In this document: positions 32,264-62,438 of the stretch, one piece after another
How positions within the stretch are numbered: position 1 is the first letter of the stretch
Layout: each line of letters starts with the position of its first letter
Source: Candidatus Peribacteraceae bacterium
Lineage (GTDB): Bacteria; Patescibacteriota; Gracilibacteria; Peribacterales; Peribacteraceae
Length of the DNA stretch: 64,000 nt
Direction of reading: 5' to 3'
Assembly: GCA_028711345.1 (NCBI GenBank)
Contig: JAQTSK010000002.1
Span: 228-64,227 of the forward strand
Position numbers and translations under genes: made by a program
The notes under the pieces: generated by a model
Database searches by the model: none
The model's input: only the letters and a program-made list of their open reading frames with translations
What the model was told of the DNA's origin: nothing

Positions 32264-32702
32264 AAATTGAAAATTGTAAATTGAAAAAGGAAAATTAATG
32301 TTTTGAATTATTTTCTTTCGAAGATTTTATGATGGCCACCAAGAGGCGGATGATCTCATTAATATCACTCAAAAGAGAAGTGCCTTCTACTTGGCTAAAA
32401 TAACAGCTATCACGCAGGAGGAGAATCCAGAACCGTGTTTCATATGCCTCTTTCAGTGCAATAGAAAGCTTTGAAATGAAATCTGCCCTACTTTGCCCTT
32501 GCAGCGATTCCTCGATGTTCGCGCCAACACTTGTTCCTGAGCGCAGCAGTTGCTTGCTCATTACATATTCCCTTTTCGATTCCGTAAGAAATTGATATGC
32601 CTTCACAATTCGCAGTGCAAAGGCAAAACTTTTCTCCCGGACGATATTCTTTTTCTCCATAACAATTTTCAATTTTCCTTTTTCAATTATCAATTGTAAA
32701 GC
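32263..32702. repeat. inverted-repeat-flanked cassette carrying four-helix-bundle gene 1
   Basis: Perfect 18-bp inverted repeat AATTGAAAAAGGAAAATT (32279-32296) / AATTTTCCTTTTTCAATT (32671-32688) within longer low-complexity arms. Confidence 0.75.
32295..32660 (-). CDS. four-helix-bundle protein ('23S rRNA intervening sequence protein' family)
   Basis: ..SFAFALRIVKAYQFL......YVMSKQLLRSGTSVGANIEE......DFI.KL.IALKEA.ET.FWL.LL... Start set at MEKKNIV. Confidence 0.8.
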   Translation of the reverse strand: MEKKNIVREKSFAFALRIVKAYQFLTESKREYVMSKQLLRSGTSVGANIEESLQGQSRADFISKLSIALKEAYETRFWILLLRDSCYFSQVEGTSLLSDINEIIRLLVAIIKSSKENNSKH

Positions 32703-40658: not shown

Positions 40659-40660
40659 GG

Positions 40661-41136
40661 GAGAAAGGGAGGATGAGAGGATGGAGAGGTGAGAGAGGAT
40701 GAGAGGAAGGATGTTGTGATACAATTGAAGCTTCCTATGGCAGAGCGCCCATATCAGAGGCTGATCGCTTGGAAGGAAGCTCATGCTCTCTGCCTGCGAG
40801 TATATGAGTATACGAAAAAATTTCCATCCGAAGAGCAATATGGATTGAGGTCTCAGATGCGTCGTTCAGCGTATAGCGTTCCGACGAACATAGCAGAAGG
40901 CAACGGACGAAAAACGATTCCTGACAAAAGGCATTTTTTGGATATCGCGACCGGTTCCATTGAGGAGTTGCACTACCAGTGCATTCTTGCACGTGATCTG
41001 CACTACATAACTGCCGAGGTTTGCATTGAGCTGCATGATCGCATCCAACGTACCGGTTACCTCATCCACAAACTGAGACTTTCATTGTAGATTTCTTCTC
41101 ATCCTCTCATCCTCTTTTTCTTCTCATCCTTTCTTC
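40661..41136. repeat. inverted-repeat-flanked cassette carrying four-helix-bundle gene 2
   Basis: Purine-rich arm built of GGATGAGAGG words (40661-40713). Complementary CCTCTCATCC-word arm (41092-41136). Imperfect. Confidence 0.65.
40737..41090 (+). CDS. four-helix-bundle protein ('23S rRNA intervening sequence protein' family)
   Basis: ..YQRLIAWKEAHALCLRVYEYTKKFP.EE.YGLRSQMRRSAYSVPTNIAEG......D...FL.IA.GS.EEL.YQ..LARDL.. Confidence 0.8.
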   Translation: MAERPYQRLIAWKEAHALCLRVYEYTKKFPSEEQYGLRSQMRRSAYSVPTNIAEGNGRKTIPDKRHFLDIATGSIEELHYQCILARDLHYITAEVCIELHDRIQRTGYLIHKLRLSL

Positions 41137-42781: not shown

Positions 42782-45757
42782 TCAAAGCACTTTCTTCAGA
42801 TACTCCCCCGTGGCATTCCCTTTGGCAGCCGCCACTTCTTCCGGCGTTCCCTTCGCGACGATCTTCCCGCCGCCGTCACCGCCGTCCGGCCCGATGTCGA
42901 TGACATGGTCGACCGACTTGATGACGTCCAGATTGTGCTCGATCACCAAGACCGTATTCCCTCTCTCCACCAGCCGTTGCAGGACGTCCAGCAGACGCCG
43001 GATGTCGTCGAAGTGGAGGCCGGTCGTGGGTTCATCGAGGATGTAGAACGTCTTGCCGGTGGCGCGCTTGGTGAGTTCCGTCGCCAGCTTGATCCTCTGC
43101 GCTTCGCCGCCGGACAGCGTGGTCGCGCTCTGACCCAGATGAATGTAGCCGAGACCGACGTCGCACAGCACCTGCAGCTTGTTCTTGATCGACGGGAACG
43201 ATCCGAAGAACTCCAACCCTTCCGCGATGGTCATATTGAGCGCTTCCGCGATCGTCTTGCCGCGGTAGGTCACTTCCAGCGTTTCGCGGTTGTAGCGCTG
43301 TCCTTTACAGGTTTCGCAGGTCACGTAGACGTCGGGCAGGAAGTGCATTTCTATCCGCTTGAGTCCGTCGCCTTCGCAGTCTTCGCAGCGGCCGCCGGAG
43401 ACGTTGAAGCTGAAGCGTCCGGGTTTGTACCCGCGCAGTTTCGCTTCCGGCGTGAGGGCGAATGCGTCGCGGACTTCCGTGAAGATGCCGGTGTATGTTG
43501 CGGGATTGCTGCGGGGCGTTCTGCCGATGGGGGATTGATCGATGACGATGGCTTTGTCCACGTACTGCAGTCCGCGGATTTCCTTGAAATCCTGTCCCTT
43601 GGCGTGCGCCTTGTTCAGCACCCGCTGCAGTTCCGGCGCCAGAATCCCGTGGATCAGGCTGGATTTCCCCGAGCCGGATACGCCGGTGATGCCGATGAGG
43701 CAGCCCAGCGGGAACCGCGCGTCGACATTCTGGAGATTGTGGTGCGTCGCGCCGGTGATCTCGATGAAGTTGCCGTTGCCCTTCCGTCGCTTCGCCGGCA
43801 CGGCGATTTTCTTCTTTCCGCTCAGGTACTGCCCCGTCACCGACTTCGGATTGTCGACCAGCGTCTTCGGCGAACCTTCGGCGATCACTTCGCCGCCGTG
43901 CTTTCCCGCACCGGGTCCGATTTCCAGCAGCCAGTCGGCGGATTCGATGGTTTCCTGATCGTGCTCAACGACGATCACGGTGTTGCCGATGTCGCGGAGG
44001 CGTTGGAGCGTGGAAATCAGCTTGGCGTTGTCGCGCTGGTGCAGACCGATGGACGGTTCATCGAGCACGTACAGCACGCCCTGCAGCGCGGAACCGATCT
44101 GTGTGGCCAGCCGGATGCGCTGTGCTTCGCCGCCGGAGAGCGTGGCAGCGGAACGATCGAGCGTTAAGTACTTGAGCCCGACATTTTCGAGAAACGTGAG
44201 ACGGGCGACGATTTCGGAGATCACTTTGCGGACGATGGTGTATTCATAGGATGACAAAGAACCAGAGGATTGAGAGGAAGCAGAGGAACCAGAAGAATCG
44301 GCAATCGTCATTTCCTTTGGTTCTTCTGGTTCTTTTGTTTCCTTTGGTTCCTTCCTGTTCGGAATCAATCCCTCAAAAAACTTCCGTGCTCCGGTGATCG
44401 ACATCCCCGATCCCTCGACGATGTTCTTCCCGCCGACCGTCACGCCGAGGATTTCTTTCCTGAGGCGCTTGCCGCCGCAGTCCGGGCAAGGGAGCTCGAA
44501 CATGTACGCTTCGATCTGGGAGCGGACGTAGCTCGAATCCGTCTCGTTGTGTCGCCGCTGCAGATTCGGGATGACGCCTTCGTAGGTTGTCTGGTAGTGA
44601 CCGTCGAACTTTTCGGTGAGGAAATCCACATCCACTTTGTCCGGATGACCGTGCAGGATGATGTTCTGAACTTCGGGCGTCAGTTCTTTCCACGGAACGT
44701 CGAGCGAGAATTTGAGTTTCTTCGCGAGCGCAGTCAGCGTCTGGAGCATGAAGCTCATGCGTCCCGCCGATGTGGCCCACGGATGGACCGCCCCTTCGTT
44801 CACGGTGAGATCTTTATTCGGAATGATGCTGCCCTGATCGATCTGCAGAATGTTCCCGATGCCGTGGCAGTGCCCGCAAGCACCATGCGGGGAGTTGAAG
44901 GAGAAGCTGCGCGGCTCGATCTCCGGAATGCTCAGCTCAGGATGATCGGGATCGATGAATTTGTCCGAGAACTTCACCAGATTGCCGGTGTTGTTGTCGA
45001 GGATGAAGAGCATACCTTCGCCCTTCCTGAGCGCCAATTCGACGGAATCCGCGAGGCGCACACGGTGGGGATTGGGCGTTTCGACGACGGTGCCGCTTGA
45101 AAGGGTTTCTTTCGTCGGAGCGAAGTCTTTCACGATCATCCGGTCGATGACGATCTCGATGTCGTGGGCTTTCTTCGGATCCAGAGCCAATTCCTCATCG
45201 GTGGTCACGATCTGTCCGTCGACGCGCATCCGGACGTATCCTTCCCGTTTGATGAGGTCGAGGATCTTCTGGTGTGCGCCCTTCCGTCCCACGACCTGCG
45301 GAGAGAGCAGGAGAATTTTCTTGCCGGCCGGCATGGCGGTGATGATGTCGGTGATCTGGCTGGGGGATTGACGCGTGAGGAGCTTGCCCGTGATGGGGGA
45401 GTGGACTTTGCCGACCTTCGCCCAAAGGAGTCGCATGTAGTCGTAGATCTCCGTGATCGTCCCGACGGTTGACCGCGGATTTCGCGGGGCGGTCTTCTGA
45501 TCGATGGAAATGGCGGGACTTAAGCCCTCGATGGAATCCACTTCCGGTTTCTCCATCTGCGCGATGAACTGCCGTGCATAGGCGGAGAGCGATTCGGCGT
45601 AGCGCCGCTGCCCTTCCGCGAAGATCGTGTCGAATGCGAGCGAGGATTTTCCTGAGCCCGACAAGCCGGTGATGACGGTGAGGGCGTTGCGGGGAATGCT
45701 CACATCGATGTTCTTCAGATTGTGCATCCGCGCCCCTTTGACCTTGATGAAATCCAT
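42782..45757 (-). CDS. uvrA: excinuclease ABC subunit A, with a low-complexity in-frame insertion
   Basis: Two ABC ATPase modules (GLSGSGKSS, GVSGSGKSS; LSGGEAQR twice) and zinc-finger Cys motifs. Extra ..KEPKETKEPEEPKEMTIADSSGSSASSQSSGS.. segment. Confidence 0.95.
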   Translation of the reverse strand: MDFIKVKGARMHNLKNIDVSIPRNALTVITGLSGSGKSSLAFDTIFAEGQRRYAESLSAYARQFIAQMEKPEVDSIEGLSPAISIDQKTAPRNPRSTVGTITEIYDYMRLLWAKVGKVHSPITGKLLTRQSPSQITDIITAMPAGKKILLLSPQVVGRKGAHQKILDLIKREGYVRMRVDGQIVTTDEELALDPKKAHDIEIVIDRMIVKDFAPTKETLSSGTVVETPNPHRVRLADSVELALRKGEGMLFILDNNTGNLVKFSDKFIDPDHPELSIPEIEPRSFSFNSPHGACGHCHGIGNILQIDQGSIIPNKDLTVNEGAVHPWATSAGRMSFMLQTLTALAKKLKFSLDVPWKELTPEVQNIILHGHPDKVDVDFLTEKFDGHYQTTYEGVIPNLQRRHNETDSSYVRSQIEAYMFELPCPDCGGKRLRKEILGVTVGGKNIVEGSGMSITGARKFFEGLIPNRKEPKETKEPEEPKEMTIADSSGSSASSQSSGSLSSYEYTIVRKVISEIVARLTFLENVGLKYLTLDRSAATLSGGEAQRIRLATQIGSALQGVLYVLDEPSIGLHQRDNAKLISTLQRLRDIGNTVIVVEHDQETIESADWLLEIGPGAGKHGGEVIAEGSPKTLVDNPKSVTGQYLSGKKKIAVPAKRRKGNGNFIEITGATHHNLQNVDARFPLGCLIGITGVSGSGKSSLIHGILAPELQRVLNKAHAKGQDFKEIRGLQYVDKAIVIDQSPIGRTPRSNPATYTGIFTEVRDAFALTPEAKLRGYKPGRFSFNVSGGRCEDCEGDGLKRIEMHFLPDVYVTCETCKGQRYNRETLEVTYRGKTIAEALNMTIAEGLEFFGSFPSIKNKLQVLCDVGLGYIHLGQSATTLSGGEAQRIKLATELTKRATGKTFYILDEPTTGLHFDDIRRLLDVLQRLVERGNTVLVIEHNLDVIKSVDHVIDIGPDGGDGGGKIVAKGTPEEVAAAKGNATGEYLKKVL
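44259..44352. repeat. inverted-repeat element embedded in frame in uvrA
   Basis: GAACCAGAAGAA (44286-44297) pairs perfectly with TTCTTCTGGTTC (44321-44332). Extended imperfectly by GAACCAGAGGA / TCCTTTGGTTC words. Confidence 0.65.
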
Positions 45758-50265: not shown

Positions 50266-50373
50266 GGAATGTAAAATGTACAATGTAGAATGTAAAATTA
50301 TTGCTTTCCCAAGCCCAAATCGCATGCATCGCCATTCAGCATTGTACATTGTACATTCTACATTTTACATTTC
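50266..50373. repeat. empty low-complexity inverted-repeat element upstream of aroF
   Basis: 34-nt arms, 29/34 complementary (GGAATGTAAAATGTACAATGTAGAATGTAAAATT / CATTGTACATTGTACATTCTACATTTTACATTTC), 40-nt centre. Confidence 0.75.
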
Positions 50374-51419: not shown

Positions 51420-51531
51420 GGTTTCAAGTAACATGTTTCAGGTTTCAAGTTTCTATGCCACTAACCCCTTCTATACTCTGAATCGATCATTCCTTCCTAA
51501 CCTGAAACCTGCAAACCTGAAACCTGTAACC
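51420..51531. repeat. empty low-complexity inverted-repeat element between aroF and aroB
   Basis: Arms built of GGTTTCA(A/G)G words (51420-51453) and CCTGAAACC words (51499-51531). Several pairing registers, 45-nt centre. Confidence 0.65.
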
Positions 51532-59671: not shown

Positions 59672-60892
59672 ATGTCATTACATACGCTCATGTTCGGCTG
59701 GGAATATCCTCCTGTCCACTGCGGCGGTCTGGGAGTGGCTTGCCAGGGGATCGTTCGCGGGCTGAAAGCTCATGGAACGCACGTGACGTTGGTGTTGCCG
59801 CATGACACGGCGAGCGAGGACGGGGTATCCATCCTGACTCCCGCCGATCTGGGTGTGGCGGGATTGATCTCGGTTCAAACGAGGCTGCATCCCTACGATT
59901 CGGTGGAAACGTTCGCCGCACGTATCGCGGCTCAGGAGGCAGATCCGGCTCTGCAGGAACTCTACGGCACCGATCTCGGTGACGCGGTGGAGCGGTACAC
60001 GGCGACGGCGGTGGAACTGACGAAGAACGTGCCTGCGGACATCGTGCATACGCATGACTGGATGACGCTTGGTGCCGGCGCTCGCGCCGCCAAAGCGTTG
60101 CGTAAGCCGCTGGTGGCGCACGTACACGCGACGGAATTGGATCGCACCGAGTTCCATCCCAACGCATGGATCTACGCACAGGAATTGAAAGGATTGCAGT
60201 CTGCCGATCACGTCCTTGCCGTCAGCTCGTATACCAAGAATCTCCTCGTCCGGGAGTACGGCATCCGTGCGGACAAAATTACGGTGCTCCACAACGGCGC
60301 ATTTGCAGTGCCGACGCACAATCGACCGTTTGAGAAGCACGGGAAGCGGCATCCGCTGGTCTTATTCCTCGGTCGTCTGACGGTGCAGAAGGGCGTTACG
60401 TACTTCCTGCGTGCTGCGCGGAAGATCGCCGACCACCGTTCGGATGTCCGTTTCGTTGTCGCCGGTGACGGGTACCTGCTTCCGCAGCTTATCGCGCAGG
60501 CTTGTGACATGGGACTGGCAGACCGGATCATTTTCGCAGGCCGCGTGACGAACGCCGAGGCGCGTCAGCTCTATCGTAAAGCGGACTGCTTCGTCATGCC
60601 GTCCGTCTCCGAACCGTTCGGTCTGGTCGCTCTCGAGGCGATCACCCACGGCGCTCCGGTGGTGATGAGCCGCCAGTCCGGTGCCGCCGAAGTCATACAG
60701 AATTCTCTGCTGGTCGATTTCTGGGATACGGACAAGATGGCGGACTGCATTCTGACCGTGCTTCGCGAGGAGCCGCTGCGCCGCGCGATGCATTCGCAGA
60801 CACCGCGTATCCTCCGCAACCTCACATGGGAGCGGCAGGCGGGGAAGATCCTCGCAACATACCGGAATGTCATCGGAGGGCGGAATGGATAA
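59672..60892 (+). CDS. glycogen-synthase-like glycosyltransferase (GT4/GT5)
   Basis: ..FGWEYPP..CGGLGVAC.G..., ..GRLT.QKG......A......D.RFV.AGDG...., ..PS.SEPFGLVALEA...G.P.V... Confidence 0.8.
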   Translation: MSLHTLMFGWEYPPVHCGGLGVACQGIVRGLKAHGTHVTLVLPHDTASEDGVSILTPADLGVAGLISVQTRLHPYDSVETFAARIAAQEADPALQELYGTDLGDAVERYTATAVELTKNVPADIVHTHDWMTLGAGARAAKALRKPLVAHVHATELDRTEFHPNAWIYAQELKGLQSADHVLAVSSYTKNLLVREYGIRADKITVLHNGAFAVPTHNRPFEKHGKRHPLVLFLGRLTVQKGVTYFLRAARKIADHRSDVRFVVAGDGYLLPQLIAQACDMGLADRIIFAGRVTNAEARQLYRKADCFVMPSVSEPFGLVALEAITHGAPVVMSRQSGAAEVIQNSLLVDFWDTDKMADCILTVLREEPLRRAMHSQTPRILRNLTWERQAGKILATYRNVIGGRNG

Positions 60893-61003
60893 TTGATAAT
60901 TGAAAATTGATAATTACTTTCAGGCGTTGCCTTCTCTCCATCGAACACAACTTGATTCACAGCACAAAAAATTATCCATTATCCATTCTCAATTATCCAT
61001 TAC
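60883..61003. repeat. empty low-complexity inverted-repeat element between the GT and GH57 genes
   Basis: 34-nt arms 60883-60916 and 60970-61003, 29/34 complementary. The left arm contains the GT stop codon. Confidence 0.75.
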
Positions 61004-61007
61004 ACCA

Positions 61008-62300
61008 ATGTCCTCCAAGCGCATCACCACTCCGGCAGTCTGCTTCTATTTTCAGGTTCACCAGCCGTACAGGTTGAATGACCTGCGTATCACGGACATC
61101 GGCAGTGTCGGGCCGGCCGGATACTTCGATGCGACGAAGAACCATGCGATCTTCCGCAAGGTGGCCGAAAAATGCTATCTGCCTGCGAATGCGCTGATGC
61201 TGACGTTGCTCCGCGATCATCCGGATTTCAAGGTCGCATACTCGCTCTCCGGCGTCTTCCTCGACCAGTGCCGCGAGTATGGACAGGATGTGCTGGATTC
61301 CTTCCGCGCATTGGCGAAGACAGGACAAGTCGAATTTCTGGCTGAAACGTACTATCACTCGCTCTCTTCTCTGTTCTCACTCGGTGAGTTCTGTGAGCAG
61401 GTGAAGCGGCATGCCGATACCATTGAGGAATTATTTGGAGAACGCCCCACCGTGTTCCGCAACACCGAGCTGGTGTTCTCGAACGAGATTGCCGAGATCG
61501 CACGTCTGCTCGGGTTTAAGGGAATTCTTGCCGAAGGTGCGGATCATTTGCTGAAGGGGAGAGAGGCGACAACGCTCTACCGCCCTCCGCGTTTCGCCTT
61601 GCCGTCCGCATCGAAGCGCATCATCGCACGTCACAGGATTCATCCGCGGAGCGCCGCAACGACGAAAATCCTCCTCAAGCACTACCGTCTCTCGGATGAC
61701 ATCGCTTTCCGCTTTTCGAACCGTACGTGGCCCGGTTATCCGCTGAAGTCCGAGACATTCGTTTCGTGGGTACGCGAGAACCCCGGTTTCACGACGAATC
61801 TCTTCATGGACTACGAAACGTTCGGTGAGCACCAGTGGGCCGATACGGGGATCTTTCAATTCCTAGCCGCACTGCCTGGTGAGCTCAGGCGTCAGGGTAT
61901 TCCCACGCGAACGCCATCGGAAACGATTGTCGCATGGGCACGCAGACCAATGCCGGTGCTGGATGCGCACGTGCCGTACTCATGGGCCGACACCGAACGC
62001 GATCTGTCAGCATGGAGAGGCAATCCGCTGCAGGAAGCCGCTCTCAGGAATATTTACAGTTTGGAATCACAAGTGAAGGCGTCGGGTGATCTGTTCCTCC
62101 TCGATACGTGGCGCAGACTCCAGACGTCCGATCACTTCTACTACCTCTGCACGAAGTACTGGAACGACGGCGACGTGCACCGGTACTTCAGTCCGTACGA
62201 ATCGCCGTACGAGGCGTACCGGAGGTATAGCCACGCAATCGAAGATTTGCGGTTGCAGCTGGAAAGAGCAGCCGAAGGGAAATTGATAATGGAAAATTGA
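61008..62300 (+). CDS. glycoside hydrolase family 57 (alpha-amylase/branching-enzyme-like)
   Basis: ..CFYFQVHQPYRL..., ..YLPAN..., ..DYETFGEHQW... Start moved to ATG 61008; the track N-terminus translates a repeat arm. Confidence 0.8.
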   Translation: MSSKRITTPAVCFYFQVHQPYRLNDLRITDIGSVGPAGYFDATKNHAIFRKVAEKCYLPANALMLTLLRDHPDFKVAYSLSGVFLDQCREYGQDVLDSFRALAKTGQVEFLAETYYHSLSSLFSLGEFCEQVKRHADTIEELFGERPTVFRNTELVFSNEIAEIARLLGFKGILAEGADHLLKGREATTLYRPPRFALPSASKRIIARHRIHPRSAATTKILLKHYRLSDDIAFRFSNRTWPGYPLKSETFVSWVRENPGFTTNLFMDYETFGEHQWADTGIFQFLAALPGELRRQGIPTRTPSETIVAWARRPMPVLDAHVPYSWADTERDLSAWRGNPLQEAALRNIYSLESQVKASGDLFLLDTWRRLQTSDHFYYLCTKYWNDGDVHRYFSPYESPYEAYRRYSHAIEDLRLQLERAAEGKLIMEN

Positions 62301-62413
62301 TAATGGAAAATTGTCTGTCTTTCTCATTGATGACCATGGTATTTACAACTCCAATCTTCATGTCCTCTCTGCACAAAATAATTATCAATTTTCAATTATC
62401 CATTATCAATTCC
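62278..62413. repeat. empty low-complexity inverted-repeat element between the GH57 and GH15 genes
   Basis: Arms 62278-62314 and 62380-62413 built of ATTGATAATGGAAAA words. The right arm is 32/34 complementary to 60883-60916. Confidence 0.7.
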
Positions 62414-62438
62414 GTTCCGTCTCTCTAATCACAACTTT

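Follow-up and report, generated by a model that had tools for sequence, protein, structure and literature searches.

How has a large inverted repeat come to be read in frame within uvrA, an essential gene, and to what kind of element does it belong? The question is raised by the genome of an uncultivated groundwater Peribacteraceae bacterium (Peregrinibacteria, Candidate Phyla Radiation (CPR)), a metagenome-assembled genome (MAG) of 1.77 Mb in 93 contigs (54.6% GC, 92% complete; GenBank assembly GCA_028711345.1), designated G000 here. The window that we analysed is the 64,000-nucleotide stretch from position 228 to 64,227 of contig JAQTSK010000002.1, and coordinates given without a contig label refer to it. 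All genomes used for comparison are likewise MAGs, among them that of a sister in the same genus (G001). We consider it likely that the uvrA insert is a gene-less miniature of a group of selfish palindromic elements of the Peribacteraceae, similar to the intervening sequences (IVSs) of 23S rRNA, and that it is tolerated as a surface loop of the protein.

The uvrA gene occupies positions 42782-45757 on the minus strand. Its open reading frame (ORF) is intact, and the 991-residue translation matches the solved UvrA structures 2R6F, 9GXK, 3ZQJ and 3PIH over the full length (E=0). Alignments with orthologs (30, 44 and 113 sequences) and with Geobacillus UvrA (2R6F) delimit an in-frame insert of 30 codons, E470-G499 (44261-44350, minus strand), which is preceded by the conserved residues L464-I-P-x-x-K and followed by S-L501-S-S-Y504-E505; the protein reads ..NRKEPKETKEPEEPKEMTIADSSGSSASSQSSGSLSS.. 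across it. Residues ~467-501 are without counterpart in the Geobacillus protein, where FFDGL joins ELTEKEAQIARLILREI directly, and other families of the class have only 4-11 residues at this spot. At the DNA level the insert consists of two arms of 42 nt, 74% complementary and separated by 14 nt, in each of which the sequence repeats in tandem every 9 nt. The 5' arm of the mRNA (44312-44353), recognised both as a direct-repeat family and as one side of the inverted repeat, is purine-rich (C/T-rich on the plus strand), is made of 9-nt words of the GGAACCAAA type and encodes KEPKETKEPEEPKE. The loop that fills the gap between the arms (44298-44311) encodes approximately M-T-I-A, and the second arm (44256-44297), G/A-rich on the plus strand, encodes SSGSSASSQSSGS on the minus strand, giving the peptide KEPKETKEPEEPKE-MTIAD-SSGSSASSQSSGS and the word pair GGAACCAGA/GAACCAAAG. 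Within the arms a perfect 12-bp core pairs GAACCAGAAGAA (left copy, 44286-44297) with TTCTTCTGGTTC (right copy, 44321-44332). The predicted fold in the mRNA sense has an energy of about -37 to -38 kcal/mol (z=-4.07), and none of 200 dinucleotide shuffles was as stable. A preliminary description, made from the letters of the window, had reported such a repeat, with a perfect core and imperfect arms, at a point where other UvrA proteins run straight through; its coordinates, sequence and translation were correct, and the alignments bear out the placement. A chimeric inverted duplication arising in assembly or binning might be suspected in a genome of 93 contigs, but the insert lies in the interior of a 67-kb contig, the frame of 991 codons is unbroken, and in-frame hairpins occupy the same codon position in independent assemblies from ENA, JGI and NCBI, so that an artefact of this kind is extremely improbable.

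In the protein the insert falls within what we take to be signature domain I, just ahead of the long helix by which the chain reaches the LSGGE motif. A model built with AlphaFold2 from a 114-sequence alignment (mean predicted local distance difference test (pLDDT) 79, predicted template modelling score 0.70) places residues 469-497 in one long coil with pLDDT below 50, between helices 454-462 and 503-525; a model from the single sequence was discarded (pLDDT 34). The signal of the insert resides in the DNA and not in this peptide. Its inverted-repeat score of 15.5 is higher than any obtained by shuffling codon order (300 shuffles, maximum 11) or by recoding the same peptide synonymously (300 recodings, maximum 12). 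Six of the 11 serines are encoded by TCT (8.8% genome usage, p=1.5e-4) and three of the four prolines by CCA (8.7% genome usage, p=2.5e-3); these codons are among the rarest of the genome, and they appear here because the repeat words dictate the choice of codon. An alternative would be that the palindrome is incidental and that the insert is a disordered linker selected in the protein, its charged and then Ser-rich segments providing a new property. In agreement with this, the five in-gene copies of the GA type (in uvrA, an nth-like gene, the lysS linker, the ECF-S gene and the rplD tail) lie in a hydrophilic Ser-rich frame, with Phe/Leu frames avoided, and in many orthologs an S/V/L/P-rich half again follows a K/E/T/D-rich one. 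This pattern is, however, the yield of any purine- then pyrimidine-rich hairpin in a stop-free hydrophilic frame, and neither sequence, nor length (0-52 aa across orthologs), nor composition is conserved even at 96% identity. Given also the rare codons and the exact complementarity above all synonymous recodings, a selected linker seems very improbable.

The insert is one of a class of hairpins that is dispersed through the genome. With a symmetric detector we found 113 hairpins in G000, 83 of which have arms of tandem 7-9-nt words (families include AATGGATAAT, TAAATGGCT, AATGTAG, GGCAAAAG, GGTTTCT and GAAACCGAGGAGTCCGA). These short-form elements comprise the arms and a unique loop of 5-105 nt, and there are dozens per genome, mostly intergenic. 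The G-rich arm is 5' in 79 of 82 word hairpins (p=4e-20), an arm order that is the same on both strands, so that the polarity is intrinsic to the elements. Loops are practically unique (a 10-mer is shared by 59 of 3403 loop pairs), and the similarity of an arm to its best match among arms at other loci (0.95) exceeds that to its own partner (0.88), the former value being a best-of-many statistic that is biased upward; the similarities give no sign of local arm-to-arm homogenisation. Templated addition of G-rich words at breaks by a reverse transcriptase (RT), in the manner of telomerase, would explain both the polarity and the unique loops; it was rejected, as only 10 of 41 genomes have RTs, and the hairpin-bearing G001, G003 and G013 lack them. 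The class is lineage-restricted, with densities per Mb of ~47 in G000, 85 in G012, 15 in G024 and 0-5 in two other families of the class. The words found in uvrA have a two-armed non-coding sibling at C5:1290-1387, as well as one-armed relatives inside ORFs that encode EEP-type or SSx-type tracts. According to a crude codon-usage gene map (1511 genes, 85% coding), 9 of the 83 word hairpins lie within genes though ~85% of the genome is coding, seven of the nine having a 9-nt period; this scarcity is the pattern expected of purifying selection filtering a DNA-level process. Apart from uvrA, the Pfam-confirmed hosts of in-frame copies are Tgt, an nth-like HhH-GPD glycosylase, an ECF-S component, the linker of a LysRS-DUF2000 protein and the tail of L4.

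A longer form of the element carries a gene of the family PF05635 ('23S rRNA IVS protein'), which encodes a four-helix bundle of the S23p/Avd-like type. We examined all such genes in nine genomes, and inverted word arms bracket 28 of the 32 above the maximum for shuffled sequences, with spans of 416-563 bp. Ten of the 11 genes in G000 are armed (scores 12-30.5 against shuffle maxima of 10-13.5; span 416-460 bp), the eleventh abutting a contig break, while the eight other genomes contribute 17 armed genes out of 20 and one that was seen directly (span 429-563 bp). The gene sits in the loop between inverted arms of 3-5 tandem words of 7-9 nt each, and the cassettes are located between protein genes. 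All G000 cassettes have the G-rich arm on the left, and no two share a word family; the major short-hairpin families are among those used. In the other genomes the 5' arm is never C-rich. One cassette from another genome (L181, G024:C6:273788-274602) has TTAGGG-like arms, GTTAGGGTTAGGATTAGGGTT and AATCCTAATCCTAACCCTAAC, that resemble eukaryotic telomere repeats. Two cassettes lie in the window. The first, at 40660-41136 on the plus strand, is 1.7 kb downstream of uvrA and has inverted arms of GAGGATGAGAGG words (PF05635 match 123.7 bits; arm score 17, shuffle maximum 12.5), and the second, at 32272-32695 on the minus strand, has arms of AATTGTAAATTGAAAAAGG words (inverted-repeat score 20, shuffle maximum 11.5).

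The PF05635 paralogs are deeply divergent (30-72% identity), and their identity co-varies with the k-mer similarity of their arms (24 cassettes, Mantel r=0.27, p=0.0002): pairs of proteins with at least 55% identity have a mean arm similarity of 0.23, and those below 45% one of 0.03. A gene and its arms therefore change in concert, as one unit, and the co-variation suggests that the four-helix-bundle protein may bind or recognise its own arms. The purine-rich GA-type 9-nt vocabularies all fall within one clade of PF05635 proteins, and it is to that vocabulary that the uvrA words belong.

The closest link between cassettes and the uvrA insert comes from the sister genome. At the G001 site orthologous to 40660-41136 there is a flipped cassette, with a protein 70% identical, whose arms (GAGGAACCAGAAGAAACAGAAGAACCAAAGGAACCAGAAGAA and TTTCCTCTGTTTCTTCTGGTTCCTCTGACTCCTCTGGTTCCTTC) are collinear with those in uvrA (left 38/48, right 37/44 identical); the two have inner ends in common, of the form ...GGAACCAGAAGAAT, interior, TTTCCTyTG.... 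Given this collinearity, the uvrA hairpin looks like a cassette whose interior of ~400 bp has been cut to 12-14 nt. Where a site orthologous to a G001 cassette could be identified in G000, its content differs in 5/5 cases: three hold another cassette (C78, C34 and C84, with proteins 70%, 48% and 54% identical, respectively), and two, C5 and C159, a short gene-less palindromic element. As ~12% of spacers are occupied, the chance expectation for five occupied sites is estimated at ~0.12^5. The cassette sites persist, and it is their occupants that change. In G008, a redoxin/thioredoxin-like gene (L166, G008:C2:72800-74100) is found where both genomes of the genus carry a four-helix-bundle cassette.

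A comparable turnover is seen in uvrA itself. Among 113 Peribacteria UvrAs the insert loop is the only internal site of long indels; at least 15 aa are present there in 64 of them, and the length at the site correlates with total length (r=0.84). Strong hairpins occupy an identical codon position in four orthologs with 85-96% protein identity, and all four differ (-38 to -55 kcal/mol): the GGAACCAAA words of G000 are replaced by GCGAGTA words in the 96% identical ortholog L111 (-40 kcal/mol), by GCGAACA words in L018 (91% identical, -42.5 kcal/mol) and by GAGTCCAAA/GAAACCAAG words in L112 (85% identical, -55 kcal/mol). The alignment is cleanly homologous as far as L-[IV]-P on the left and becomes so again at L-S-x-Y-E on the right. 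We dropped an apparent likeness between the loops of close orthologs ('IAD' and 'EM[ST]') as a sign of homology, the 'GCTGAC' of L018 being part of its own word. Codon shuffling identifies eight significant inverted repeats among 20 longer inserts with DNA, together with three one-armed arrays (L003, L004 and L010), the rest being without a repeat; L111 and L112 raise the significant hairpins to at least 10 of ~22. The UvrA tree places (L018,(L001,L111)) as sister to (L106,L112), and the distribution on it of a K-E-x 9-nt type, common to G000, L112, L106, L002 and L003, and a 7-nt type, common to L111 and L018, implies at least two replacements within the genus. The words themselves are local: GCGAACA/GCGATCA matches ~50 times in either genome of the genus, whereas eight other genera give 0-10 matches, CTTTCAA follows a similar lineage-specific pattern in G009, and the words of the L106 insert, GAAACCGAGGA, are the most abundant 9-nt family of G000. 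Inserts are written in the dispersed words of their own lineage, and replacement of the occupant of the site outpaces the divergence of the protein. The UvrA of G008 has the short ancestral loop only, and PF05635 genes number zero in that genome. A second insertion relative to Geobacillus UvrA, of ~18 aa at residues ~213-230 (45070-45120; FAPTKETLSSGTVVETPNPH), reaches up to 12 aa and varies in length across Peribacteria; no repeat was seen in it.

It is possible in principle for such hairpins to grow in place. An ancestral quasi-palindrome (GAGAAG...CTCTTTC) could have been expanded by slippage and its arms matched by template switching, the likeness to hairpins elsewhere being due to mutational bias. 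Slippage does operate on these elements, as can be seen in the window, where inverted repeats of this size are confined to five loci, namely the uvrA insert and four intergenic word hairpins. The hairpin upstream of aroF (50268-50371, AATGTA words) has been inherited by the sister genome too; the loop is ~80% identical there, and word variants and an indel of one whole word in an arm are evidence of slippage. The 198 tandem-word arrays of period 7-9 in G000, most without an inverted partner by a strict detector, are also compatible with growth in place; 84 of them are inside called genes (56 of these with a 7-nt period), so that partnerless in-frame word arrays are common. One-armed arrays are present at the uvrA site of L003, L004 and L010, and short-loop relatives too have a purine-rich left and a pyrimidine-rich right side. 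Growth in place does not, however, account for the occurrence of the same genus-specific words at dozens of loci, for arms whose resemblance to their own partner is exceeded by that to arms at other loci, for the collinearity of the uvrA arms, inner ends included, with a cassette of the sister genome, or for orthologs 96% identical with unrelated words on a tree that requires at least two replacements. Whole elements are also exchanged, with their loop or gene, at cassette sites and in the aroF-aroB spacer, which is filled in G000 by a hairpin of GGTTTCA words (51428-51530) and in the sister genome by an AATGTA-word element, with both arms and loop of a different family. We therefore regard growth without mobility as unlikely. 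The remaining two hairpins of the window are made of AATGGATAATTGA words (60879-61006) and AATTGATAATGGA words (62270-62422).

Selection might instead act on the hairpin as RNA in the uvrA transcript, where it would be either an RNase III site or a translational pause that tunes the level or folding of UvrA. The recurrence of significant hairpins, in at least 10 of ~22 longer inserts despite unrelated sequences, would fit this explanation, as would the stems of IVSs, which are RNase III substrates (PMC4990558). RNase III is encoded in the genome, so that cleavage of a ~40-bp stem in the uvrA mRNA is conceivable. The mismatches tell against an RNA-level role: those compatible with G.U pairing show no strand bias (37 sense, 34 antisense, p=0.81), most are non-wobble, and all three in the best 23-bp stem of the uvrA copy are A.C in the mRNA sense. 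Many family members, moreover, have only a short loop or a non-palindromic insert, terminator-like T-runs and promoter enrichment are absent, and no Rfam family was matched (best 31 bits against a cut-off of 85). Selection for an RNA structure is in our judgement distinctly improbable.

We return to a mobile origin, which we favour. The full-length element consists of a PF05635 gene in the loop between inverted word arms, located outside rRNA, and the short form has the arms without the gene; we infer from the shared arms that the short form derives from the cassette. The copy in uvrA sits in the one loop of signature domain I that is permissive and, with a length that is a multiple of three and a hydrophilic frame, is read through as ~30 residues predicted to be disordered, K/E/P-rich and then Ser-rich, presumably leaving UvrA function essentially unaffected. 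The same site is re-occupied each time by an element in the lineage's own words. Several points weigh against this scheme, in addition to the bias of the arm statistic and the crude gene map mentioned above. A full cassette with GAACCAGAAGAA arms was not found in G000 (92% complete), and no cassettes were seen that match the uvrA words of G013, G009 and G012. PF05635 counts track hairpin density only loosely, G012 having 85 hairpins per Mb and 4 genes, and G040 no hairpins and 3 genes, of which 2 are broken. The 14-nt loop in uvrA shows no trace of the interior of a cassette, which leaves the collinearity of the arms as the basis for the derivation. Neither a target-site duplication nor a pair with an empty site was found; no direct repeats are evident at the boundaries of the uvrA insert or in aligned families, which offer no empty site for comparison. 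We know of no transposase-like activity among PF05635 proteins, and the history could have run in reverse, with a four-helix-bundle gene landing in a pre-existing hairpin. With the peptide held fixed, the folding energy of the uvrA insert is not extreme (z=-1.2), and most inserts at the site give z=-0.3 to -1.5; any purine-rich (K/E) half will pair to some extent with a pyrimidine-rich (S) half, so this null is weak and we do not count it as counter-evidence. The informative measures are the exact-repeat score and codon usage, not folding energy.

In structure, the nearest relatives of the element are the ORF-bearing IVSs of 23S rRNA. In Coxiella the IVS is 428-444 nt long, has a 28-bp terminal stem with an S23p ORF in the loop, has been called a selfish element and is excised from pre-23S rRNA by RNase III (PMC4990558). 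The IVSs of Coxiella, Leptospira and Xanthomonas resemble the cassettes in size (416-563 bp for the latter), in their terminal inverted repeats (a stem of 20-45 bp), in the gene family carried in the loop and in sporadic, selfish-DNA behaviour. They differ in being situated in helix 25 or 45 of 23S rRNA, whereas the cassettes described here lie between genes and their miniatures in frame in protein genes, where excision by RNase III would not restore the message. The arms of the cassettes are also distinctive, being tandem 7-9-nt words with a fixed G-rich-5' polarity, and each genome has many families, which differ in their words and in the protein paralog that co-varies with them. The uvrA copy has the terminal stem (42-nt arms) but, with its 14-nt loop, no PF05635 ORF, and would at most represent an ORF-less form. 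Short ORF-less IVS hairpins exist in Salmonella and parallel the short hairpins seen here.

The resemblance to Rickettsia palindromic elements (RPEs), which the preliminary description had proposed, is only partial. RPEs are translated in-frame palindromes in housekeeping genes that appear compatible with the fold of the host protein and have a conserved consensus and peptide (PMC10969869). The word hairpins are similar in that read-through copies occur in frame in unrelated conserved genes. RPE families, in contrast, are ~100-150 bp long with a consensus and peptide, whereas the copies described here share words and architecture but differ in loops and peptides; their site occupants are replaced quickly, and a gene-bearing form exists. 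We know of no gene associated with RPEs. The insert is RPE-like in its behaviour but is not an RPE. Other parts of that description fared better: the likeness to the intergenic elements holds for architecture and polarity and is strengthened by the sibling at C5:1290-1387 and the collinear cassette arms of the sister genome, further in-frame modules occur elsewhere in the genome, and close relatives, which might have carried a homologous non-palindromic loop, have non-homologous palindromic ones. Its suggestion that the element persists in essential coding sequence as an in-frame loop stands as regards a translated loop that is modelled as disordered; the element does not, however, persist, its turnover at this fixed hot spot being quick. 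Its reading of the element is on the whole supported.

Other mobile or repetitive systems share some of these features. Repetitive extragenic palindromic (REP) sequences, their inverted doublets (REPINs) and REP-associated tyrosine transposases (RAYTs) likewise combine dispersed lineage-specific hairpins with a cognate gene that has its own repeats on either side, but the gene cognate to the word arms encodes a four-helix bundle without known catalytic activity. The five Y1_Tnp genes of G000 are flanked by GC-rich REPs of other families and not by word arms, so that classical REP/RAYT systems coexist with the word hairpins, and mobilisation of the latter by RAYTs was rejected because the RAYT genes carry their own GC-rich REPs. 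RAYT-like genes at C39:19900-20800 and C16:5900-6500, the latter with an in-frame TAG, are flanked by the REPs GGGAGCGGAATGCTTTCCGCGG and CCGGGACGCGGCGTCCCGG. In five genera of the family (G018:C37, G005:C22, G022:C53, G015:C41 and G004:C37) a Y1_Tnp (HUH) domain is found in open frames of ~1000-1077 aa, far larger than ordinary IS200/RAYT proteins. Terminal inverted repeats, which are present in the uvrA copy, are also a trait of miniature inverted-repeat transposable elements, but the protein of the putative parent is a four-helix bundle and not any known transposase, and interiors are unconserved. The tandem repeats of Borgs evolve fast and within ORFs yield disordered regions (Schoelmerich et al. 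2023, PMC9879509). They resemble the word elements in being both intergenic and within ORFs, in their disordered products and in having hot spots with different repeats in homologs; they are, however, perfect direct repeats with no inverted partner or cassette, whereas the words here are imperfect and form an inverted pair of fixed polarity. Period is less clear-cut, as it is 9 nt in uvrA and in 7 of the 9 in-gene hairpins yet 7 nt in 56 in-gene arrays. PARCELs (palindromic elements that code for amphipathic repeats) are coding repeats with dyad symmetry in the DNA that shuffle within genomes, but their product is a defined amphipathic domain of 25 residues, part of accessory surface proteins, and not a disordered loop in a conserved enzyme.

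In the open-access papers that were searched we found no description of word-armed PF05635 cassettes, or of such hairpins in CPR/Peribacteria genomes, and the cassette as putative parent element of the hairpins appears to be new. PF05635, a large family without known function that is known mainly as IVS cargo, here supplies the gene of a modular cassette whose word arms co-vary with it, a context that suggests a role in nucleic-acid recognition. A wider proposal is that PF05635 proteins are sequence-specific partners of an undescribed class of mobile elements, each paralog reading its own arm words, that elements and miniatures repeatedly overwrite fixed sites, including loops of essential genes, and that 23S rRNA IVSs are the members resident in rRNA; we put this forward tentatively, as a possibility that we would not at present expect to hold in full. 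IVSs of rRNA, RPE-like in-frame palindromes and the low-complexity loops common in CPR proteins may share one DNA-level process, by which disordered loops of essential genes could be added and replaced faster than the proteins themselves diverge. In practice such inserts break homology-based alignments, as in the split UvrA matches, and can be misread as functional linkers.

Some other palindromic copies are worth recording. LysRS is fused to DUF2000 in one ORF of 664 aa whose linker is a 9-nt word hairpin (PKKPKSPRSPTNNRLSSVSSDSSVPSVSS; C61:2134-2217), and it is possible that this hairpin bridged two genes. The C-terminal extension of L4 (~65 aa, C61:11861-12049) is wholly a word hairpin with a 105-nt loop (KESEASEESEETEE...SSDSSDSSVSSESS). 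A word hairpin of the 9-nt GAAACCGAGGA family and the RNase III gene are located ~250 bp apart (C85:13003-13091 and C85:13346-13732). A separate palindromic family, TGTCAT[CC/GG]TGAGCGnAGTCGAA..., is found in frame in MiaA, ProB and a PMT_2 glycosyltransferase (C47:27716-27787, C77:77374-77458 and C71:12867-12936) and yields peptides that resemble CHPERSRRM..LTMT; the copy in MiaA lies between the P-loop and the IPPT domain, and that in ProB within the AA_kinase domain.

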